Source of the DNA: an uncultured Candidatus Saccharibacteria bacterium
GTDB taxonomy: Bacteria; Patescibacteriota; Minisyncoccia; UBA9983
Assembly: GCA_964438405.1 (NCBI GenBank)
Contig: CAYTKF010000002.1
Location: 12,404 to 76,403 of the forward strand
Length of the DNA: 64,000 nucleotides
Reading direction: 5' to 3'
Under the pieces are notes generated by a model. That model was not told where the DNA came from. It saw nothing but the letters and a program-made list of their open reading frames with translations, and made no database searches. A program made the translations under genes and the position numbers. This document shows positions 6,831-56,319 of this stretch, in pieces; positions within the stretch are counted from its first letter, which is position 1, and each line of letters begins with the position of its first letter.

Positions 6831-9050
6831 ATGGAAGTTAAGAATATTCGGAATTTTTCCATTATTGCACATATTGACCACGGTAAGTCCACGTTGGCGG
6901 ATAGGTTTTTGGAAATCACTAAAACTGTCGAAAAAAGAAAAATGAAAGAGCAGTTTTTGGACCAGATGGAGCTGGAAAGAGAACGTGGAATAACTATTAA
7001 GATGCAACCCGTCAGAATGCTTTATAGCACGCGGATAGACGCGGATAAAGACGCAGATAAACGCGGATTACTATATGAAGATTTGACCTATAAATTAAGG
7101 GGCATGTTTTTTAATGTCTATAATAAACTTGGCCCGGGACACAAAAAGAATATCTATAGTAATGCCCTGGAAAAAGAGTTAATTAACAAGAACTTAAAAT
7201 TTGACAAAGAAAAAACAATGGAAGTTTTATATGACAATGAACAGGTTGGAATTTACAGACCAGATTTTGTTATTGAAGATAAAATTATTATCGAATTAAA
7301 AGCGCTACCCTTTATTGGTAAGTTAGAAAAAAAACAGATTTGGCATTATCTAAAAGGTTCAAATTACAGATTGGCATTATTGGTAAATTTTGGCGGAAGA
7401 GAATTACAAATAGAACGTATAATTTATGATAATATCCGCGACAATCAGCGTAATAATCAGCAAGAATCTGTGTATATTCTAAATTTGATTGACACTCCTG
7501 GGCATATTGATTTTTCATATGAGGTTTCGCGGGCGTTAAAGGCGGTTGAAGGCGCTGTGCTTCTTGTTGACGCCACTCAGGGCGTGCAGGCCCAGACAAT
7601 CGCCAACGTGGAAACGGCAAAATCTTTGGGTCTGACTATTATTCCAGTAATTAATAAAATAGATTTGGCATCAGCAATGATAGAAGAAACAAAAGAAGAA
7701 ATAAAAAAATTACTGGGCGAAACAGATATTTTGGAAGTGTCAGCCAAAAGCGGTCAGGGAGTGGAAGATTTGCTTCAAAAAATAATAAAAAGAGTGCCAG
7801 CGCCAAAATTTGAAAACGAATCTAGCCCTCGTGCCCTTGTTTTTGATTTTGAATATTCCAGCCATCAGGGAATTATTGCTTATATCAGAATGATAGACGG
7901 AGAAATAAAAAAAGGAGATGAACTTCTGCTTTCGCAGACAAAAGAAAAATTTGTTGTTGCCGAAACCGGAATTTTTCTGCCCAACCGGAATCCGGTTTTG
8001 AAATTAAGTGCGGGTGAAATCGGCTATATTGTTACAAATATTAAAAAGCCAAATGTGGCTGTTGTCGGAGATACTGTCATATCACAAAAAAATACACTGG
8101 CGCCTCTTTCTGGTTATCTTCAACCCAAGCCTGTTGTCTGGGCAAGCATATATCCTGAATCTCAGGATGATTTTGATGCGTTTAAACAAGCTCTGGAGAG
8201 ATTACGGCTCTCTGATAGTTCATTAAGTTTTGAGGAGGAGAATAATGGCGCATTGGGTCGTGGATTTAAATGCGGTTTTTTAGGCATGCTGCATTTGGAA
8301 ATTATCACAGAACGTTTGCGCCGCGAATTTAATCTTAAATTAATAACAGCGTCACCGACAGTCACTTATATGCTTGAACTTAAAGATAGTTCCCCAAAAG
8401 AAATTTATTCGCCGATTTCTTTTCCCGAGGAACATCTCATAAAAAAAATTTCAGAGCAATGGGCAGAATTGCAGATCATGGTTCCGTCGGAAAAAATGGG
8501 ATTGATTTTCCCTGTGCTTTACGACCACGAGGCTGAAGTTGGGGACACGGAAAAATTCGGAGAAAATCACACTCTTATAAAAGCCAAGATGCCGTTAAGA
8601 GAATTAATGCGTAATTTTTTTGATGAGCTCAAAAGCGCCACTTCCGGATATGGTTCTCTGGGGTATAAAATTTTGGGTTTTCAAGAAACGCCCCCGGGCA
8701 AAATAGTCCGTTTGGATATTTGGGTGGCAGACGAAATCATGCCGGTTTTTTCCCGTATAATAAGTAGAGAAAGAGTGGAATATGAATCCAGAAGAATCGT
8801 TGAAAAACTGGCGGAAATTATTCCCCGTCAGCTTTTTACAATAAAAATTCAGGCCAAGGCTCTGGGCAGAATTATTGCCTCGCGCTCCATTTCCGCTCTT
8901 AAAAAAGATGTCACCGGCTATCTTTACGGCGGAGACAGAACGCGCAAGATGAAACTTTGGCAGAAGCAGAAGCGCGGAAAAAAGAGAATGAAAGAATTTG
9001 GAAAGGTTAATATTCCCTCAGATGTTTTTATAAAGATGATGCAGAATTAA
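6831..9050 (+). CDS. lepA: Translation elongation factor 4 (LepA) carrying a ~150-aa in-frame inserted domain
   Basis: NIRNFSIIAHIDHGKSTLADR (G1), DTPGHIDF (G3), NKIDL (G4) and the LepA-specific C-terminus ...KKRMKEFGKVNIPSDVF. 739 aa against ~600 typical. Confidence 0.9.
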   Translation: MEVKNIRNFSIIAHIDHGKSTLADRFLEITKTVEKRKMKEQFLDQMELERERGITIKMQPVRMLYSTRIDADKDADKRGLLYEDLTYKLRGMFFNVYNKLGPGHKKNIYSNALEKELINKNLKFDKEKTMEVLYDNEQVGIYRPDFVIEDKIIIELKALPFIGKLEKKQIWHYLKGSNYRLALLVNFGGRELQIERIIYDNIRDNQRNNQQESVYILNLIDTPGHIDFSYEVSRALKAVEGAVLLVDATQGVQAQTIANVETAKSLGLTIIPVINKIDLASAMIEETKEEIKKLLGETDILEVSAKSGQGVEDLLQKIIKRVPAPKFENESSPRALVFDFEYSSHQGIIAYIRMIDGEIKKGDELLLSQTKEKFVVAETGIFLPNRNPVLKLSAGEIGYIVTNIKKPNVAVVGDTVISQKNTLAPLSGYLQPKPVVWASIYPESQDDFDAFKQALERLRLSDSSLSFEEENNGALGRGFKCGFLGMLHLEIITERLRREFNLKLITASPTVTYMLELKDSSPKEIYSPISFPEEHLIKKISEQWAELQIMVPSEKMGLIFPVLYDHEAEVGDTEKFGENHTLIKAKMPLRELMRNFFDELKSATSGYGSLGYKILGFQETPPGKIVRLDIWVADEIMPVFSRIISRERVEYESRRIVEKLAEIIPRQLFTIKIQAKALGRIIASRSISALKKDVTGYLYGGDRTRKMKLWQKQKRGKKRMKEFGKVNIPSDVFIKMMQN
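7028..7070 (+). repeat. Imperfect tandem repeats of ~12 nt (ACGCGGATAAAG-like, ~4 copies) inside lepA
   Basis: cACGCGGATAGACGCGGATAAAGACGCAGATAAACGCGGATTAc encodes STRIDADKDADKRG at the N-terminal junction of the inserted domain. Confidence 0.7.
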
Positions 9051-9558: not shown

Positions 9559-9629
9559 GCGGATATGGTTTAGTGGCAGAACGCGACCTTCCCAAGGTTG
9601 AGATCGGGGTTCGATTCCCCGTATCCGCA
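9559..9629 (+). tRNA. tRNA-Gly(CCC)
   Basis: Cloverleaf folds by hand: acceptor GCGGATA/TATCCGC, anticodon stem CGACC/GGTTG with loop TTCCCAA, T-arm CGGGG-TTCGATT-CCCCG. Confidence 0.8.
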
Positions 9630-9666
9630 TGTGTTAATTATTAAAAAAGACAAAAAAGAGGAATTT

Positions 9667-10476
9667 TTGGAAAAAACTAAGGGCAAGTTTGAGGTTTTTT
9701 CCGCCCAAGGCGGACCCGCCTCTGGCGGAGATTCCTTTAAAAAATATCTCCTACCCCCAATAGAAGATATTGAATCCAAACCACCTAAAAAATTTGTCAT
9801 TATTGGCCTAAGTGATTGTGATTTAGAAGCAATAATTCAGCTGGATGAAATAATGACAAGGCCAGTGCGAGATTCTCTTTACTGGCAAAGAAGGGAACAG
9901 GCGATTATTGTTGGTTCAGACGACAAAAACGCAAAAAAGTTTGTTGAAGATTATAAAGAATTTTTGGAGGAAACAATGGAAGCGTTGCTTCCACTTGGAA
10001 GCGTCGCTTCCAAGTGGGCTGACTGGACGAAGTCCATGCGCCAGCTTCTGCTTGATTCCGAGCTTTTGGCAAATGCAGTTGAATGGTCTCACGACCATAA
10101 AATCTGGGACGATTTGGCAATACGATGTTTGGGCTGTGGCATTTGCACTTATGTCTGCCCACTTTGTTACTGCTTTTCAATGGAGGATAGTGTCGGGTTT
10201 GATGGTGTATGTAAAAGATGCAAAAAATGGGACGCTTGCACCTTGCCGAATTTTTCAAAAATCGCCGGAGGACATGATTTTAGGCCGAGCATCAAAGAAA
10301 GATATTATAACTGGTTTTACCACAAATTCGTGCGCGCCTATAAAGAATATGGTAAATCCCAATGCGTCGGCTGTGGAAGATGCAAAAGCCAGTGTCCGGC
10401 TGGCATAGATATTTATGAAGTGTTAAAAATTATTTTAGAAGATTATGGAAAATATTTATCAGCCGCAAAAAATTAA
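9667..10476 (+). CDS. hydB: [NiFe]-hydrogenase (group 3b/sulfhydrogenase-like) beta subunit, Fe-S protein
   Basis: CxxCxxCxxxCP ferredoxin motifs (CLGCGICTYVCP and CVGCGRCKSQCP). First gene of the hyd operon. The start is uncertain because the ORF track start lies inside the tRNA; TTG at 9667 with an AGAGGA RBS is proposed. Confidence 0.6.
   Translation: MEKTKGKFEVFSAQGGPASGGDSFKKYLLPPIEDIESKPPKKFVIIGLSDCDLEAIIQLDEIMTRPVRDSLYWQRREQAIIVGSDDKNAKKFVEDYKEFLEETMEALLPLGSVASKWADWTKSMRQLLLDSELLANAVEWSHDHKIWDDLAIRCLGCGICTYVCPLCYCFSMEDSVGFDGVCKRCKKWDACTLPNFSKIAGGHDFRPSIKERYYNWFYHKFVRAYKEYGKSQCVGCGRCKSQCPAGIDIYEVLKIILEDYGKYLSAAKN
9977..10023. repeat. In-frame ~45-nt double-palindrome element inside hydB
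   Basis: TGGAAGC-GTT-GCTTCCA c TTGGAAGCG-T-CGCTTCCAA GTGGGCT. The reverse complement recurs at 13235-13278 inside hydA with 2-3 mismatches. Confidence 0.8.
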
Positions 10477-11212
10477 AATAAAAAAAGTTGAGGAACTTTC
10501 GCCAACCGTGAAGTTATTTCGGTTGGCGGGTAATTTTGTTTTTAAGCCTGGGCAATTCTTTCTGCTTGGCAGAATCGGTTATGGCGAGGCGCCGTTCGGC
10601 GCGCTTTCATCGCCGTACGAAAAAGATTATTTGGAATTTGCGATACGAGCCGTTGGAACTGTCACTAATTTTTTGCATACCCTAAAAAACGGCGATGAAA
10701 TTGAAATCCGGGGTCCGTTTGGCAATGGATTTCCTTTGGATTTTATAGAAAATAAAGATATTGTCATGGTCAGCGGTGGTTCCGGTATTCCGCCAATCGC
10801 GTCGCTTACAGAATACATTATCAAAAACCGCGAAAAATTTAAAAATGTTTATCTGCTTTACGGTTCAAAAACAGAAGAAGAAATTTTACTAAAAGACAGA
10901 TTTGAAAAATGGGGCGAGGCGCGAGTAAAAGTTATGATGCTCGCCGGCGGATTTGTAACTGACTTAATAAAAGATATAAACGTTGACGAGCAAAATGCCG
11001 TTTGCCTAATGTGCGGACCCGGGCCAATGACAGATGCCATAGAAAAAGTTATAAGGCCGCTCGGCATTTCCGACAGGAGAATTTTTGTAAGCATTGAACG
11101 CAGGATGCAGTGCGGAATAGGCAAGTGCCAGCATTGCACAACAGGAAGCAAATACACCTGTCTCGACGGTCCAGTGTTTTATTATGACGAAATAGACAAA
11201 AACTGGGATTAA
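10445..11212 (+). CDS. hydG: Hydrogenase gamma subunit: FAD/NAD(P)-binding oxidoreductase with a C-terminal 2Fe-2S cluster (PyrK-like)
   Basis: Ferredoxin-NADP reductase-like fold motifs (GSGIPP, LLYGSKTEEE) and the C-terminal CGxGxCxxC cluster motif CGIGKCQHCTTG...C. Confidence 0.7.
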   Translation: MENIYQPQKIKIKKVEELSPTVKLFRLAGNFVFKPGQFFLLGRIGYGEAPFGALSSPYEKDYLEFAIRAVGTVTNFLHTLKNGDEIEIRGPFGNGFPLDFIENKDIVMVSGGSGIPPIASLTEYIIKNREKFKNVYLLYGSKTEEEILLKDRFEKWGEARVKVMMLAGGFVTDLIKDINVDEQNAVCLMCGPGPMTDAIEKVIRPLGISDRRIFVSIERRMQCGIGKCQHCTTGSKYTCLDGPVFYYDEIDKNWD

Positions 11213-11277
11213 ACCACTGGGCTTGCTTTTCCCCTAGTATTTATTATCTTGGAACTAGAGGATTTTGCTGAAAGGAG

Positions 11278-11667
11278 GTGAGGAATATGACTATCAGCGA
11301 TCTCCAACAATTTGCTCTTAAGGTAGCCGGGCTCACGGCTGAGTATTTCGGGAGCATGGACACGGACAAGGTTCGTTTTCTCAATGAAATCTCAAGGGTC
11401 GTCAGGAGGAAAAAAGATGTAGCCACTCTGACTTGTTTCAATAGCCACATTCTTGTCTTCTGGCAAGGACGACAGAACACCATTTTTTCTCTTCTAAAAG
11501 AAGGAAGAAATGAATTGCCTGACAGCGAGATGATTGACTGGCGAAATGAAGCCCATGAGCATTTCAAAAGATTCTCTCACTTGAGATTTCAGGTGAGGGT
11601 TGGACGGATAGAATCAATTGTTGAAGAAATTCAAAAAATTGTTGACACCATCCGTCATGCTCCCTAA
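11278..11667 (+). CDS. Hypothetical 129-aa protein inserted between hydG and hydD
   Basis: Strong RBS AAAGGAGGTGAGG 6 nt before the ATG. GC-rich relative to its flanks. No recognisable motif. Confidence 0.45.
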   Translation: MRNMTISDLQQFALKVAGLTAEYFGSMDTDKVRFLNEISRVVRRKKDVATLTCFNSHILVFWQGRQNTIFSLLKEGRNELPDSEMIDWRNEAHEHFKRFSHLRFQVRVGRIESIVEEIQKIVDTIRHAP

Positions 11668-11731
11668 GGGGTTCTTTGATAACAAAGACCCCTTTCTGTT
11701 TAATACGGCTACCAAATGTTATAATTATTTT

Positions 11732-12475
11732 ATGAAACCCAAAGTTGCAATTTATGATTTTACAGACTGCGAGGGATGCGAAGTGAAGCTTATTTCTCTG
11801 CGCGAGAAATTACTTTTGATTGAAGATAAATTAAATATTGTTAACTGGCGTTTTGGTCAGGAAAAATTTAATGCCGGGCCCTATGACATTACAATTATAG
11901 AGGGAACGCCTATTACAGAAAGCGAAGTTAAATTATTAAAAGAATTAAGGCAAAATTCAAAAGTTTTAATTGCTCTTGGCGCCTGCGCTGGACTGGGCGG
12001 CATTCCCGCAATCATTCCGCAAAAAGACAGAAAATTTTGGTACGATAAAATTTACACTTCGCAATACACGCCCCAGGGCATAGACGCCTTACCGCTCTCT
12101 GCTTACGTACCAATTGATTTTACTATTCACGGATGTCCGGTTGATGAAAATGAGGTGGTGCGTGTCGTGGAGGAACTTTTAAGCGGTAAAAAACCACATT
12201 ACAGGGGCTATTCCGTATGTTTTGAGTGCAAGCTGGCTGGCAACGAGTGCAGAATAATAAATAACAAGCCGTGTCTTGGTCCCATAACGCAAGGCGGATG
12301 CAATGCAGTTTGTATCACGGGCGGCTCGCCGTGTTACGGATGTTTTGGTTTGCGAAGCGAGGCAAATATTCCAGCGCTTATAAAAATTTTAGAAAAACTA
12401 ACTAATATTAAGGTTGTAGAAAATTATCTCAGTATGTTTCATAATAGAACAAAAGAAATAAAAAATGATCACTAA
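11732..12475 (+). CDS. hydD: [NiFe]-hydrogenase small (delta) subunit
   Basis: MKPKVAIYDFTDCEGCE N-terminal Cys motif plus further Cys clusters, typical of group-3 small subunits and NuoB-like proteins. Confidence 0.7.
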   Translation: MKPKVAIYDFTDCEGCEVKLISLREKLLLIEDKLNIVNWRFGQEKFNAGPYDITIIEGTPITESEVKLLKELRQNSKVLIALGACAGLGGIPAIIPQKDRKFWYDKIYTSQYTPQGIDALPLSAYVPIDFTIHGCPVDENEVVRVVEELLSGKKPHYRGYSVCFECKLAGNECRIINNKPCLGPITQGGCNAVCITGGSPCYGCFGLRSEANIPALIKILEKLTNIKVVENYLSMFHNRTKEIKNDH

Positions 12476-13667
12476 CGAATTTATCGCAAAAATTGAGGGA
12501 CACGGAAGTTTAAAAATTGATTGGAGCGCAGGCAAAGTTAAACTTCATATTGACGAAGGCGAACGGCTTTTTGAAGGAATTTTAGTTAATAGGCCGGCAG
12601 AAAATGCTTCATGGATAACTCCGCGCATCTGCGGAGTTTGCCCGATTGCGCACAATCTTGCTTCGCTTTCTGCAATAGAAGACGCGCTTGGCATTAAAAT
12701 AACAGAAACTTCACAATTTTTAAGAGATTTAATGCAAACAGTTCAAATGATGCAAAGTCATGTCCTGCATTTGTTTTTTCTTGCCTTGCCGGATTATATC
12801 AGGATTGACAGAGGCACAGAATTAGCAAAAAAAGAACCTAACGCATTTAAAAAGGCATTGTTTATAAAAGAAATAAGCGATGAGATTGCAAGTGTTGTTG
12901 CCGGCAGAAATGTTCATCCCACAACAACAACCATCGGCGGATTTCATAAAATCCCTTCAAAAAAACAGCTTGAAAATCTGCTTAAAAAACTGGAAAAAGG
13001 CGAAAAAGATGCGGAATGGGTGCCGAAATATTTTTCTAAATTAAAATATCCGAAGTTAAAAGTTGATTTGGAACTGGTGGCAATCAGCGGAGACGAAGTT
13101 GTTTCTAATAAAGGCGGTAAATTTTTGATAAAAGATTACAAACAAAATATTGAGGAAGAATTACGAGATTATTCCACGGCTAAGTTCGGCAAACTTCAGG
13201 GCAGAGAGATAATGGTAGGGGCGTTGGCGAGATTAGCTCACTTGGAAGCGTCGCTTCCAAGTGGAAGCATCGCTTCCAAATTGGACTTTTCCAATCCCTT
13301 TCACAACAATCTCGCTCAGGCAATTGAAATAGAAATGTTTTATAAAAAGGCCGAGAAAATTATAAAAAAATTATTAAGCATAGAAATGGATAATAAAATA
13401 ATTCCAGCGTCAATTAGCGACGGTGCAGGTATCGGCGCAGTTGAGGCGCCCAGGGGCGGGCTTTACCATGAAATTCATGTCAATCAAGAGGGGATTGTCA
13501 CTTACGCAAATATTGTTACTCCAACAGTGCAAAATTTAACTTCTATAGAAAAATCAGCACAAGAATTATTAAATCAGACGAAAAAATTGGATAATAAAGA
13601 GAGAGAAAGATTATTGAACATGCTCGTCCGCAGCTACGACCCGTGCATAACCTGCTCAGTGCATTAA
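12465..13667 (+). CDS. hydA: [NiFe]-hydrogenase large (alpha) subunit
   Basis: N-terminal RICGVCPIAH (CxxC Ni ligands) and C-terminal DPCITCSVH (DPCxxCxxH motif). Confidence 0.8.
   Translation: MITNEFIAKIEGHGSLKIDWSAGKVKLHIDEGERLFEGILVNRPAENASWITPRICGVCPIAHNLASLSAIEDALGIKITETSQFLRDLMQTVQMMQSHVLHLFFLALPDYIRIDRGTELAKKEPNAFKKALFIKEISDEIASVVAGRNVHPTTTTIGGFHKIPSKKQLENLLKKLEKGEKDAEWVPKYFSKLKYPKLKVDLELVAISGDEVVSNKGGKFLIKDYKQNIEEELRDYSTAKFGKLQGREIMVGALARLAHLEASLPSGSIASKLDFSNPFHNNLAQAIEIEMFYKKAEKIIKKLLSIEMDNKIIPASISDGAGIGAVEAPRGGLYHEIHVNQEGIVTYANIVTPTVQNLTSIEKSAQELLNQTKKLDNKERERLLNMLVRSYDPCITCSVH
13235..13278. repeat. In-frame ~45-nt double-palindrome element inside hydA, inverted orientation of the hydB copy
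   Basis: AGCTCAC TTGGAAGCG-T-CGCTTCCAA g TGGAAGC-ATC-GCTTCCA encodes LEASLPSGSIASKL. Its reverse complement aligns with 9977-10023. Confidence 0.8.
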
Positions 13668-20885: not shown

Positions 20886-21009
20886 AATATTAAAACTAAT
20901 TATAAATTAATGGTCCAAAATAAAAAAGGGGAGCGTTTCAACGTCTTTCGACTCCACGCCCCCCGCTCTGCACTCAACGCCGTCCCAGAGGGCTGTGGAT
21001 AAATAAAAA

Positions 21010-21099
21010 CGGAAGCGGGTGGATTCGAACCACCGATCCGCCTCAGCGGCGGATACCGCTTTTCGAGAGCGGCCCATTCAACCACTCTGGCACGCTTCC
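21010..21099 (-). tRNA. tRNA-Ser(CGA)
   Basis: Reverse complement reads GGAAGCG-TGCCAGAGTGGTTGAATGGG-CCGCT CTCGAAA AGCGG, then a long variable arm, then GGTGG-TTCGAAT-CCACC CGCTTCC G. Confidence 0.85.
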
Positions 21100-21113
21100 A
21101 TACAAAAACTTTT

Positions 21114-21401: not shown

Positions 21402-21644
21402 ATGTCAAAAAAAACAAAAATTATTCAGAAACGCGAAGAGTGCATTGGTTGCGGTTCTTGTACCATTGTTTGCCAGAAGTTTTGGAAGATGAACGAAAAA
21501 GATATGAAAGCAGATTTAATTGGTGGAAAAATTAATGACTCTGGCGAATACGAATTGGAGATAAAGAATATTAGCGCAGAGGATTTAGATTGTAATAAAC
21601 AGGCCGCAGATGTATGTCCTGTTAAAATAATTAAAATAATATGA
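21402..21644 (+). CDS. Small 4Fe-4S ferredoxin
   Basis: CIGCGSCTIVC ... CP cluster-binding pattern. 80 aa. ATGA overlap with trxB. Confidence 0.65.
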   Translation: MSKKTKIIQKREECIGCGSCTIVCQKFWKMNEKDMKADLIGGKINDSGEYELEIKNISAEDLDCNKQAADVCPVKIIKII

Positions 21645-22558
21645 TTTATGATGTTGCAATAATTGGAGGTTCGTTTGCCGGTCTCACTGCCGGCATTTAT
21701 TCCGCCAGAAAAAAACTTTCTACTATCATTCTCACAAAAAATCTCGGAGGCCAGGCAATACTTACCGAAGAAATAGGAAATTTTCCGGGATTCGAAAAAA
21801 TTTCCGGCAGAGAGCTGACACAAAAAATAACAGACCAAAATAAGAAATACGGCGTGGAGATAAAGGAAGGTACAGAAATAATTTCTATAAAAAAAGATGA
21901 AGAGGAGTTTGAAGTCCGACTTCGAAATCTCGAAGTCGGACTTCGGGCAAAATCAGTTATTATAGCGACTGGCAAAGAATACCGGCATTTGAATGTCCCA
22001 GGCGGTAAAGAATATGAAAATAAGGGCATAAGTTTTTGTTCCACCTGTGACGCCCCGCTTTTTGAAAACAAAGACGTGGCGGTTGTGGGCGGAGGAAATT
22101 CCGGATTATGCTCTAGCCGCGACCTTCTGGCATACGCCAATAAAATTTATGTTATGGATGTCCTGTCCCAAATAACAGGAGACGAGATTATCCAAGAGCA
22201 GTTGAAAAAAAGCGGCAAAGTAGAATTTATAACTAATGCCAAAATAAAAGAAATCAAGGGCGGAAATTTTGTGGAAAAAATTATTTATTCAGACGGAGAT
22301 GACGAAAAAGAATTGAATGTTCAGGGAATTTTTGTAAACATCGGCTGGATGCCATCAAGCGGATTGGCAAAAGAGCTGGTTAAAATAAACAAAGCCGGAG
22401 AAATAATAATTGACCACAATACCAATGAAACTTCGGTTCCGGGAATTTTCGCAGCCGGCGATGTCACTGACATAAAATACAAACAATGCGTCATAGCTGC
22501 TGCAGAGGGCGCAAAAGCAGCTCTCTCAGCCTACGAGTATTTAAAAAATAAAAAGTAA
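21641..22558 (+). CDS. trxB: Thioredoxin reductase
   Basis: YDVAIIGGSFAGLTAG FAD site, CSTCDAP redox-active CxxC, and GGGNSG NADPH site. Confidence 0.8.
   Translation: MIYDVAIIGGSFAGLTAGIYSARKKLSTIILTKNLGGQAILTEEIGNFPGFEKISGRELTQKITDQNKKYGVEIKEGTEIISIKKDEEEFEVRLRNLEVGLRAKSVIIATGKEYRHLNVPGGKEYENKGISFCSTCDAPLFENKDVAVVGGGNSGLCSSRDLLAYANKIYVMDVLSQITGDEIIQEQLKKSGKVEFITNAKIKEIKGGNFVEKIIYSDGDDEKELNVQGIFVNIGWMPSSGLAKELVKINKAGEIIIDHNTNETSVPGIFAAGDVTDIKYKQCVIAAAEGAKAALSAYEYLKNKK
21909..21947. repeat. In-frame tandem palindrome inside trxB
   Basis: TT GAAGTCCGACTTC GAAATCTC GAAGTCGGACTTC GGG. The two 14-nt arms are perfect reverse complements. Encodes FEVRLRNLEVGLRA. Confidence 0.75.
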
Positions 22559-42994: not shown

Positions 42995-43010
42995 AACTTC
43001 AGTTTTAAAG

Positions 43011-43041
43011 AAAAACCATCCGCCCAGGGCGGATGGTTTTT
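43011..43041 (+). terminator. Rho-independent terminator
   Basis: AAAAACCATCCGCCC-AGG-GCGGATGGTTTTTCTTTTT. Confidence 0.8.
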
Positions 43042-43077
43042 CTTTTTGTTGCAACTTGTTAAGATAAAAATAGTCCA

Positions 43078-45283: not shown

Positions 45284-45295
45284 GGCTTTTTGGCA

Positions 45296-45327
45296 AAAAC
45301 AGCCCCGTCATTGCGGGGCTGTTTTTG
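45296..45327. terminator. Bidirectional rho-independent terminator
   Basis: AAAAACAGCCCCG-TCATT-GCGGGGCTGTTTTTGTT. Confidence 0.8.
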
Positions 45328-54341: not shown

Positions 54342-54608
54342 TTATTTTTCCAATTCTGCAATTTGCTGTTTTTTGACCTCTATGAGTTCTTTGATTCTTT
54401 GAATTTGGGTATTATCGGCCGCTCTTGCTTCGCCCGAAGCGCCGCTTCGCATTCCCATGCCCATTTCTACACTAGAAAGCCATTGCTCAAGATCAGCTAA
54501 CCCCTTAAGCAGTTTAGCCTTTTCTTCCTCTTTTGTTTTTTCTTGGCTTTTATAGCCAAAAACTTCTAAAAAATTCATATATTTTATTATATCATAATTC
54601 TGATACAA
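54342..54608 (-). CDS. Hypothetical coiled-coil protein
   Basis: 88-aa charged ORF. Confidence 0.35.
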   Translation of the reverse strand: MYQNYDIIKYMNFLEVFGYKSQEKTKEEEKAKLLKGLADLEQWLSSVEMGMGMRSGASGEARAADNTQIQRIKELIEVKKQQIAELEK

Positions 54609-54615
54609 TTTAAAT

Positions 54616-56319
54616 ATGGAGAACCAAGAGCTCGCGAAGATTTTTTATGAGATGGCGGTTTATTTGGAGATGATGGATGAGGTGGTTTTTAAGTTTAAGG
54701 CGTATGAGAAAGCTGGCCAGAGCATAGAGGGTTTGGCAGAAAGCGTTGAAGAAATTTATAAAAGAGGCGGCATCAAGGCACTAATGGAAATTCCGGGCAT
54801 CGGCAAGAATATCGCTGAAAAAATCAGCGAATATTTGCGAACCGGAAAAATCCGCGAATATCTGCAATTAAAGAAGAAAATTCCAGTTGATTTAGGTGGG
54901 CTGATGAAAATTGAAGGTGTCGGACCGAAGAAAATAAAAGTTTTATATAAAAAATTAAAAATAAGGAACGCCAAAGAATTGGAGATAGCTGCTAAGAAGG
55001 GAAAAATAAGCAAATTAAAAAACTTCGGCGAGAAGAGCGAAAAAAATATTCTGGAAAGCATCGAATTTCTTAAAAGAAGCAAGGGAAGGTTTTTAATCAG
55101 TGAAATTCTGCCTGTTGTGCGCGAAATTGTTGCCAAATTAAAGTCCTTAAAAGAAGTTAAACAAATAAGCCTGGCCGGCTCTCTGCGCAGAATGAAAGAA
55201 ACAATAGGGGACGCGGATATTCTTGCTGTTGCCAATAAATCTGATAAAGTTATGGATTATTTTGTTTCTCTGCCAGGAGTTGTAAAAATATGGGGAAAGG
55301 GCGCGACAAAATCTTCTGTAAGAATGAAACACGGGTTTGATGTAGATTTGCGCGTTGTGCCGGAAAAAAGTTTTGGTTCTGCCTTGCAATATTTTACCGG
55401 TTCCAAAGAACACAATATTGCCACGCGCAAAATTGCCATAGAAAAAGGATTTAAGCTGAACGAATACGGAATCAAAACAGAAAAAGAAGTTTACGCTAGG
55501 CTTGGTCTGCCATATATAGAGCCGGAATTAAGAGAAAATACAGGAGAGATAAAAGTGGCCTTAAAAAATAAATTGCCCAAGCTGGTTGAATTAAAAGATA
55601 TCCATGGCGATTTACAAATACATTCAACTTGGTCTGATGGCGTAAATTCTATTAAAGAAATGGCGGAAACGGCACAAAAAATTGGTTATGAATATATTGC
55701 CATTACTGATCACGTTGGCAGATTAAAAATTGCCGGAGCAATGGCTGAGAGCCAAATCAAAAGACAATGGCAAGAAATTGATAAACTTAACAAGTCGTTT
55801 GGCAATCCGCCGGCTGGCGGATTTAAAATATTAAAGGGCGCTGAAGTTGACATTAATCCGGACGGCACAATAGCCTGCGATGATAAAATTTTATCACAGT
55901 TCGATGTTGTCCTTGGTTCTCTGCATTCAAGTTTTAAAATTCCAAAAGAAAAAATGACAAAGAGATTGGTCCGCGCCATGGAAAATCCGTATGTTGATAT
56001 TATCGCGCATCCCACAACCAGATTAATTGCTAGGCGCGACGAAGTGGTGCTTGATTGGGAAGAAATTTTTAAGATAGCAAAACGCACGGGCACGATTTTG
56101 GAAATTAATGCTTATCCGGCCCGTCTTGATTTAAAAGATGTTTATATAAAACAGGCAATAGAAGCGGGAGTAATACTTTCTTTGGGCACTGATTCGCATG
56201 AAAAATCGCAATTGCATTTTATGGAATACGGCGTTTCTCAGGCGCGCCGTGGTTGGGCAGAAAAGAAAAATATTGTAAATTGCTGGCCATTAGATAAACT
56301 TTTGAATTTTTTGAAATAA
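54616..56319 (+). CDS. polX: Family X DNA polymerase with C-terminal PHP domain (PolX)
   Basis: N-terminal HhH motifs (IPGIGKNIAEKI, IEGVGPKKIK), Pol-beta-like palm (GSLRR...GDADIL) and PHP domain (HSTWSDG...ITDH...HPT). Confidence 0.85.
   Translation: MENQELAKIFYEMAVYLEMMDEVVFKFKAYEKAGQSIEGLAESVEEIYKRGGIKALMEIPGIGKNIAEKISEYLRTGKIREYLQLKKKIPVDLGGLMKIEGVGPKKIKVLYKKLKIRNAKELEIAAKKGKISKLKNFGEKSEKNILESIEFLKRSKGRFLISEILPVVREIVAKLKSLKEVKQISLAGSLRRMKETIGDADILAVANKSDKVMDYFVSLPGVVKIWGKGATKSSVRMKHGFDVDLRVVPEKSFGSALQYFTGSKEHNIATRKIAIEKGFKLNEYGIKTEKEVYARLGLPYIEPELRENTGEIKVALKNKLPKLVELKDIHGDLQIHSTWSDGVNSIKEMAETAQKIGYEYIAITDHVGRLKIAGAMAESQIKRQWQEIDKLNKSFGNPPAGGFKILKGAEVDINPDGTIACDDKILSQFDVVLGSLHSSFKIPKEKMTKRLVRAMENPYVDIIAHPTTRLIARRDEVVLDWEEIFKIAKRTGTILEINAYPARLDLKDVYIKQAIEAGVILSLGTDSHEKSQLHFMEYGVSQARRGWAEKKNIVNCWPLDKLLNFLK

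Follow-up and report, generated by a model that had tools for sequence, protein, structure and literature searches.

The Rickettsia palindromic elements (RPEs; Ogata et al. 2000, 2002) are about 100–150 bp long and stand in frame in many unrelated, often essential genes of a bacterium with a small genome, where several families coexist and the extra peptide is thought to be tolerated at the protein surface (PMC10969869). Repetitive extragenic palindromes (REPs), by definition, lie outside genes and number tens to hundreds per genome (PMC3116915, PMC3337134, PMC5581495). In REP doublets forming hairpins (REPINs) two inverted short palindromic units make one long hairpin with a master sequence of the genome's own, and the associated gene, which encodes a Y1 HUH enzyme, the REP-associated tyrosine transposase (RAYT), is flanked by the same kind of hairpin. 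Here we describe a translated double-hairpin element of 39 nt that occurs twice, in the hydrogenase genes hydB and hydA, in a 64,000-nt stretch of contig CAYTKF010000002.1 from an uncultured Candidatus Saccharibacteria bacterium; this whole stretch is called the window below. We consider it likely that the two copies are members of a dispersed, directional, in-frame repeat family of the Patescibacteria, a REPIN-like relative of the RPEs. To our knowledge, in-frame "protein-coding palindromes" have so far counted as peculiar to Rickettsia, and no description of an in-frame palindromic repeat family in the candidate phyla radiation (CPR) was found in the searchable literature.

Double-hairpin elements of about 40 nt are also present inside genes of the mitochondrial DNA of chytrids and Allomyces; these are organellar and eukaryotic, and are not known to be related in sequence to the element described here. 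Inverted repeats within coding sequence are likewise translated in Coxiella burnetii, as intragenic MITEs (miniature transposable elements with inverted repeats) that differ from the present element in size, sequence and host (PMC5896051). The same is true of the mitochondrial coding palindromes of Nematomorpha, which are long, reaching 284 bp, and do not represent a single unit in dispersed copies (PMC6649704).

The paired hairpins in hydB and hydA

An earlier note, made from the letters of the window, had proposed that one palindromic element lies in frame, and in opposite orientations, in two non-homologous genes. A repeat search of the window bore this out. Positions 9977–10020 and 13235–13278 form an inverted repeat of 44 nt with 93% complementarity (three mismatches), both copies are in frame within ORFs (open reading frames 9598–10476, HydB, Fer4_22, and 12465–13667, HydA, NiFeSe_Hases), and coordinates, sequences and translations agree with those quoted in the note. 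On the plus strand the first site reads TGGAAGCGTTGCTTCCA-CT-TGGAAGCGTCGCTTCCA-AGTGGGCT and the second AGCTCACT-TGGAAGCGTCGCTTCCA-AG-TGGAAGCATCGCTTCCA. The note had placed its two or three mismatches at the palindrome centres; two of them do lie at unit centres, while the third is in the flank (GTGGGCT versus GTGAGCT). Each copy consists of two 17-nt hairpin units, the repeated core is 39 nt long (ACT + 17 + 2 + 17), and the GC...GC inner variant is common to both copies. The 19-nt palindrome TTGGAAGCG-N-CGCTTCCAA has four matches in the window, as two adjoining units at each site, against 0.05 expected in shuffled sequence, and no units of the family other than these four were found in the 64 kb.

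The hydA copy occupies 13240–13278 on the plus strand (ACT-TGGAAGCGTCGCTTCCA-AG-TGGAAGCATCGCTTCCA, 39 nt, 13 codons) and encodes the peptide (H)LEASLPSGSIASK. The hydB copy, at 9977–10015, is on the minus strand; the plus strand there reads TGGAAGCGTTGCTTCCA-CT-TGGAAGCGTCGCTTCCA-AGT and is translated as MEALLPLGSVASK(W). The RNA folds of the two copies have nearly the same energy, −26.0 kcal/mol (z −4.95) in hydA and −25.8 kcal/mol (z −4.83) in hydB.

Palindromes can cause mis-assembly, yet the chance that the two sites are an artefact of assembly or a chimera is negligible. The HydA protein is identical in two MEGAHIT assemblies from ENA (different samples) and two Logan assemblies (different runs), and the 100-nt blocks around the element sites are identical across the independent ENA and Logan assemblies. 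One independent contig (L001) holds both sites in the same arrangement as the window; three shorter assemblies reach the hydA site only. Four independent assemblies agree, and the copies are therefore not an assembly artefact. Furthermore, members of the same family occur in hundreds of kb of other assemblies.

Both copies are found in protein regions of variable length. The element in hydB lies in a linker between "EFLEE" and "DWTKSMRQLLLDSELL", and that in hydA in a loop between "GALARLA" and "KLDFSNPFHNN". When 120 homologues of each protein are aligned, the block of HydA is flanked by conserved GALARLA and KLDFxNPFHNN and that of HydB by EFFEE and xWSxSMRxLLLDSELL. Both intervals are hypervariable in length and sequence among the orthologues, as would be expected of the insertions in loops that the earlier note had in mind. 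Most HydA proteins of the CPR have a short loop at this place (e.g. LALGDNKKYKLDF), and more distant group-3b enzymes have a longer canonical segment. Metagenomic hydA loci mostly encode short-loop orthologues without palindromes and held no further family members, and represent the baseline state. Compared with the short-loop orthologues the net gain is about 6–10 residues; the insertion is in frame as had been claimed, and the figure of about 14 added residues is too high. In the AlphaFold model of HydB the predicted local distance difference test score (pLDDT) falls below 50 in two segments only, residues 16–20 and 108–113, which correspond to the two palindromic inserts of this protein, the latter being the double-hairpin element. 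In the AlphaFold2 model of HydA the element (residues 258–272) lies between helices 253–259 and 278–304 and is modelled with moderate confidence.

The double-hairpin element was found in no other HydB among the 120 homologues, and the hydB copy therefore appears to be specific to the lineage of the window. The hydA site, where the element is common to several lineages, was probably occupied before these related lineages split. HydA orthologues encoded at loci L005, L006 and L161, about 70% identical, carry the element in the same loop; in all three it is a perfect palindrome and the peptides differ. The L005 loop reads TTGGAAGCGAAGCTTCCA-AG-TGGAAGCTTCGCTTCCAAG (GCGAAGC/GCTTCGC), the L006 loop TTGGAAATCGGATTTCCA-AG-TGGAAATCCGATTTCCAAG (ATCGGAT/ATCCGAT), and that of L161 is a perfect palindrome of 48 nt with a stem of 24 bp. 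A GC-to-AT change among these orthologues is mirrored symmetrically in all four arms. The comparison shows that the element is conserved as nucleotides and not as a peptide, through compensatory changes that keep the palindrome. This is the opposite of the pattern that had been named as speaking against an inserted element, namely the same peptide encoded by divergent DNA. Other HydA orthologues have unrelated palindromes in the same loop, e.g. AACACCGAGTGTT[8]AACACTCGGTGTT in L162 and an imperfect one of another type, SLKT, in L159.

This SLKT-type repeat, SLKT(D/V)NKGNLTE(T/A)K, is present in both the HydA and the HydB loops of other Patescibacteria lineages (carriers P0042, P0048 and P0012 on the one side, and P0126, P0127, P0133, P0134, P0136, P0160 and P0167 on the other). 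It is a second case of one element in two non-homologous hydrogenase subunits, and its DNA in L159 is an imperfect long inverted repeat.

A repeat family of the Patescibacteria

We scanned one genome per GTDB species (596 Gb) for the exact pattern TGGAA-N7-TTCCA-NN-TGGAA-N7-TTCCA, which has 20 specified bases and leaves degenerate copies and single units uncounted. The scan returned 72 loci with 75 sites, where fewer than one is expected by chance. Once a tandem repeat unrelated to the element and four single occurrences in other phyla are set aside, the family comprises 64 sites in 41 Patescibacteria genomes (62 element-bearing loci), belonging to Giovannoni-, Sacchari-, Moran-, Nomura-, Zambryski-, Niyogi-, Kaiser- and Vogelbacteria and to Paceibacterota. 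Most of the copies are coding: ORFs of 150 aa or more enclose 58 of the 64. The host proteins include TopA (DNA topoisomerase I), LepA, MnmA, CysS, MiaA, RpoC and FtsK.

The family consensus is 5'-ACT TGGAA-N7-TTCCA AG TGGAA-N7'-TTCCA-3', where N7' is the reverse complement of N7. In 54 of the 64 copies the two heptamers are exact reverse complements of each other, and 46 copies have units that each form a 7-bp hairpin of their own around a 3-nt loop. Judged from the base pairing, the whole element could fold as one long or as two short hairpins, and the long hairpin is the minimum-energy fold. RNA folds across copies range from −26 to −42 kcal/mol (z −4.8 to −8.8), with −42 among the perfect ones. 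When the copies are turned so that the centre reads AG, the 5' ACT is near-invariant (48, 50 and 54 of 54 at the three positions) and conservation of the 3' AGT is weaker. The element thus has a direction, and its core measures 39 nt, or 13 codons. The AG orientation (PSG in the peptide) outnumbers CT (PLG) by 33:7 on the coding strand. In the window the common orientation is that of the hydA copy, whose ACT end is 5' on the coding strand; the rare one is that of the hydB copy.

Most variants are free of stop codons in all six frames, and 50 of the 58 ORF copies use the frame LExxLPxGxxxSK (P = 1e-16); the remaining copies are read in the other two frames or lie outside long ORFs. The predominance of one frame, together with a Pro-Ser-Gly turn that is plausible in a loop, could mean that LExxLPSGxxxSK is selected at the protein level and that the similarity of the DNA is a by-product. 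This can hardly be credited. The residues encoded by the inner bases change freely, whereas the bases covary so as to keep the palindrome, and the opposite orientation yields a similar peptide only because the DNA is palindromic. The use of the other frames and of sites outside long ORFs argues in the same direction, as do the absence of the element from most orthologues and the low or moderate confidence of the structure models there. We propose instead that the element is selfish or near-neutral DNA, which would persist in gene-dense genomes only where 13 translated residues are tolerated. Translated as LExxLPSGxxxSK, with its Pro-Ser-Gly turn, it would be accommodated in permissive surface loops, and the flexible loops of HydB and HydA would be such places.

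The earlier note had also considered that the two hydrogenase genes might have a binding or recombination site in common. The only two family copies in 64 kb do lie in the same operon and are inverted, as would suit a cis-acting site that is bound by a regulator, or that recombines and inverts the 3.2-kb hydB-hydA segment as an on/off switch. Such a role is nevertheless very unlikely. The same family is present in the host genes listed above and in others, across 41 genomes, and on this ground a site specific to hydrogenases was rejected. In addition, most hydrogenase operons of the CPR are element-free in both loops, the element is in no other HydB of the alignment, the arrangement of the window is also that of the one independent contig with both sites, and neither gene would survive an inversion.

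The inner heptamers point to a dispersed family with variants of each genome's own. They are identical in 25 of 36 same-genome pairs, including all six (6/6) in JAHIOX01, compared with 4.4% of between-genome pairs (permutation p < 2e-4), and orthologous sites in different genomes mostly differ at 4–7 of the 7 positions. The inner heptamer goes with the genome and not with the insertion site. The LepA linker (PAPK...RALIFDF) exemplifies the turnover. LepA P0241 carries the element as HLETEFPSGNSVSK, and P0242, 89% identical, is without it and has DKVLEG in its place; P0243 (80%) has another variant, NLEARLPSGSRASL, and P0244–P0250 (80%) are element-free. More distant LepA proteins have other coding palindromes in the linker. 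The element has been gained or lost between close relatives, and most orthologues of every host gene are without it. The "empty" LepA site of P0242 (L164, about 1540–1560) keeps a solitary TTGGAA, which may be what is left of an element since lost, or may be a target that is preferred.

A structure that is useful to the host and kept by selection, such as a site for a chromosome-organising protein, a translation pause for folding or cofactor insertion, or a signal for mRNA processing or stabilisation, would explain several of these features. The palindromy is perfect in 54 of the 64 copies, the folds are strong, the copy number is low, as for parS-type sites, and the same loop is filled in proteins that are only 42–54% identical. 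We regard this as unlikely, given the gain and loss among close relatives, the prevalence of element-free orthologues of each host gene, the unrelated palindromes found in the same loops, and hosts without a common function. Moreover, the element matches no Rfam family; the sole match at a site is a miRNA hairpin at chance level, far below threshold. A phage origin was rejected, as neither the family pattern nor the window variant has a copy in the viral contigs of IMG/VR.

The likeness to RPEs that had been pointed out in the earlier note is strengthened by these results: one family stands in frame in many unrelated housekeeping genes, in variable loops, and is present or absent among relatives. 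We keep the two apart on size and host as described for RPEs (PMC10969869), since RPEs measure about 100–150 bp and are confined to Rickettsia, whereas the Patescibacteria element is a 39–42-nt doublet of 17-nt hairpins with genome-specific variants and a candidate transposase.

A candidate transposase and the mode of spread

A gene for a Y1_Tnp protein (IS200-like, PF01797) of 216–230 aa is located directly upstream of lepA in three Giovannonibacteria (L164, 358–1050; L165, 328–1017; L166, 316–1008), and its presence at the same place in three related genomes suggests vertical inheritance. Other Y1 genes were found in L036 (5420–6070), L041 (185–826), L022, L044, L017 and L033. In total, six of the 62 element-bearing 8-kb Patescibacteria loci encode Y1 homologues; the hydA loci of the CPR have none. 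The proteins match PF01797 above its cut-off (E down to 7e-11), and their sole NCBIfam match is the REP-associated tyrosine transposase, NF047646 (E = 2e-11). A sequence search of the PDB with a single Y1 protein gave no match. A profile of seven homologues was needed to match ISDra2 TnpA (E = 0.004); the alignment brings the HUH motif and the catalytic Tyr into register. This profile also matches E. coli TnpA-REP weakly. NHYH/NHFH and Y141 are invariant among the Y1 proteins and align with the HUH motif and Y132 of ISDra2 TnpA.

Several of these genes are accompanied by hairpins. In L036 (MFHO01; hairpin sequence GTCCGAAACTTAGTTTCGGTCA) the hairpin GTCCGAAACT[T/A]AGTTTCGGTCA occurs three times, at the Y1 stop codon, within the gene, and 18 nt upstream of the start codon. 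This hairpin has a 13-nt core, GAAACTNAGTTTC, in common with the doublets of that genome (TGGAAACTAAGTTTCCA; with its tag, ACT-TGGAAACTAAGTTTCCA), one of which is in the next gene. In L033 the stop codon of the Y1 gene directly adjoins one single unit of the family, ATGGAAGCTTAGCTTCCAT. Inverted copies of another hairpin lie on both sides of the gene in L041, and in L017 and L164–L166 the C-terminus of the Y1 protein itself encodes an in-frame hairpin (e.g. NVRHRVSD, GTCCGACAC[CGA]GTGTCGGAC).

Y1 genes flanked by hairpins are the architecture of REP/REPIN-RAYT systems and of insertion sequences of the IS200/IS605 family, and this architecture agrees with the element's shape as a doublet, with master sequences specific to each genome, with a 5' tag that gives direction, and with the bias in orientation. 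The likeness to REPIN-RAYT lies in the inverted paired units, in a master sequence for each genome, and in the HUH motif and catalytic Tyr of the Y1 protein; the hairpins beside the gene have the doublet core on both flanks in L036, are a family unit at the stop codon in L033, and are of other types in L041, L017 and L164–L166. In contrast to REPINs, the copies are intragenic and in frame, and the conserved 5' tag is ACT where REPINs have GTAG/CGTC. With IS200/IS605 (ISDra2 TnpA, PDB 2xm3) the system has in common the Y1 HUH enzyme, a gene bracketed by subterminal hairpins (L036, L041) and a strand or orientation bias, which is expected from single-strand transposition. It differs in that the dispersed copies are gene-less, the Y1 gene is apparently fixed upstream of lepA in three genomes, and no target tetra- or pentanucleotide was identified. 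We consider it quite possible, if slightly short of probable, that a RAYT/IS200-like Y1 HUH transposase makes the copies and keeps them palindromic; as in REPIN-RAYT, its substrate would be the hairpin formed in single-stranded DNA.

The copies might also arise without any transposase, by template-switch correction of quasi-palindromes and spread by short-patch gene conversion or microhomology-mediated copying. Consistent with this, the arms are perfectly symmetrical despite many inner sequences, the variants are homogeneous within a genome, target-site duplications were not seen, and the two window copies are inverted and only 3.2 kb apart. We nevertheless think it improbable. Distant Patescibacteria lineages have the outer arms and the 5' ACT in common, as if one sequence were recognised in all of them; the orientation is biased; Y1 genes are bracketed by hairpins with the doublet core; and template switching leaves 39-nt blocks in unrelated genes unexplained.

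A number of observations weigh against a mobile, REPIN-like family as proposed here. Species genomes hold one to six exact doublets, far below classical REPIN populations, and few elements were met in 745 kb of loci that had not been chosen for the element. The Y1 proteins score 29–44 bits, where the NCBIfam equivalog cut-off for RAYT is 80, and the 64-kb window has no Y1-like gene detectable by tblastn or by a hidden Markov model of the seven homologues. The hairpins beside the Y1 genes of L041 and L164–L166 are not of the doublet family, and that of L017 is also of another type. Unlike in MITEs, no target-site duplication was found, since direct repeats are absent both beside the 54 oriented copies and in the filled and empty LepA pair. 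The element-less LepA loop holds other residues (L164: GAT AAG GTT TTGGAA GGT) and is not a clean empty site, so that this pair does not demonstrate a simple base-for-base insertion. In TopA and MnmA the same loop is occupied in proteins only 42–54% identical, which implies either very old perfect copies or repeated hits at a few permissive sites. Finally, both window copies are imperfect as long palindromes (15 of 17 arm positions) and may be old and inactive.

Neighbouring genes, other palindromes and implications

The host operon encodes a four-subunit group-3b [NiFe] hydrogenase in the order hydB-hydG-(ORF)-hydD-hydA. The four subunit genes are on the plus strand: hydB for the Fe-S (beta) subunit (9667–10476; Fer4_22, 2e-29; also a gene call in L001), hydG for the FAD/NAD-binding gamma subunit (10445–11212; NAD_binding_1, DHODB_Fe-S_bind), hydD for the small delta subunit (11657–12475; Oxidored_q6; a gene call in L001) and hydA for the large alpha subunit (12465–13667; NiFeSe_Hases, 1e-37, and alignments). 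The assignment to group 3b is based on the presence of all four subunits and on homologues named as sulfhydrogenase subunits. By the names of its homologues the organism belongs to the Patescibacteria/CPR. Both hydG and hydD lie between the two copies and are themselves without the element. Between them, at 11287–11667, a 126-aa ORF without a Pfam match is called as a gene; it is not present in the related operon of L162, where hydD directly follows hydG. In other relatives of the operon (L159, L160 and L161) MurD-like and MurC-like Mur-ligase genes stand between hydD and hydA, and the operon is split.

Upstream of the operon, LepA/EF4 (6831–9050, 739 aa) contains a complete PD-(D/E)XK nuclease domain in frame at residues 84–196 (PDDEXK_3, 1e-30); it interrupts the GTPase domain at a point between switch region and DTPGH motif. 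The same Pfam domain is present in another LepA of the CPR (P0301, 789 aa), and no intein-type domain was detected.

Coding palindromes appear to be a general feature of the source genome, since the window has 22 perfect hairpins that are GC-rich and have stems of 8 bp or more, against 2.4 ± 1.3 in shuffles, and several of them are in frame in genes. In hydB there is more than one kind. A second in-frame hairpin pair, of a different family, lies at 9700–9735 on the plus strand (CCGCC[CAA]GGCGG-AC-CCGCC[TCT]GGCGG) and encodes SAQGGPASGG, corresponding to the low-confidence residues 16–20 of the HydB model. This CCGCC[3–4 nt]GGCGG family is also in frame at 55804–55823 (ORF 54604–56319) and 145–196 (ORF 89–403), its peptides being (S)AQGGPASGG, NPPAGGF and PPAGGFAGG. 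SAQGGPASGG is also found in the LepA linker of Terrybacteria-like CPR proteins (P0347, P0359). A TrxB-like ORF (21641–22558) has an in-frame perfect palindrome at 21911–21944 on the plus strand, GAAGTCCGACTTCGA[AATC]TCGAAGTCGGACTTC, with a 15-bp stem and the peptide FEVRLRNLEVGLR. Its core, GAAGTC[C/G]GACTTC, is that of the commonest variant of the double-hairpin family elsewhere (GTCCGAC/GTCGGAC), and its outer arms differ. Three further long perfect palindromes, at 1604–1635, 43007–43045 and 45294–45327, have stems of 14–19 bp with A/T-rich ends and lie outside long ORFs (longest spanning open frame 48–157 aa). They form part of the ninefold hairpin excess and look like bidirectional intrinsic terminators.

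The arms of the element had also been noted to equal the acceptor-stem ends of a tRNA-Ser gene. The 7-bp identity is real: the acceptor stem of tRNA-Ser (CGA; 21009–21100, minus strand) is GGAAGCG/CGCTTCC and, with the T that precedes it, matches 9–10 nt of the arms (ATGGAAGCGT). A link is unlikely because the element's inner bases change between genomes, and the matched positions are exactly the variable ones. An origin from tRNA-Ser was set aside on this ground, and the match is probably coincidental.

We tentatively suggest, beyond the family itself, that the CPR carry REPIN-RAYT-like replicators that have shifted from intergenic to coding sequence, as several families of short hairpin doublets that domesticated Y1 HUH transposases would mobilise; these would turn over in the permissive loops of essential proteins and would be a main cause of length-variable insertions in CPR proteins. 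The element joins two ideas, a doublet of REPIN shape and a place inside essential genes, across a large and poorly understood bacterial radiation. If the proposal is correct, it would explain part of the odd protein insertions of the CPR, supply markers for strain tracking, and alert those who annotate genomes or predict structures to the origin of such loops from repeats. It would also serve as a natural experiment on the survival of selfish DNA in streamlined genomes, and on the protein sites where 13 extra residues are tolerated, and would mean that a partnership of transposase and repeat persists in genomes with almost no non-coding DNA.

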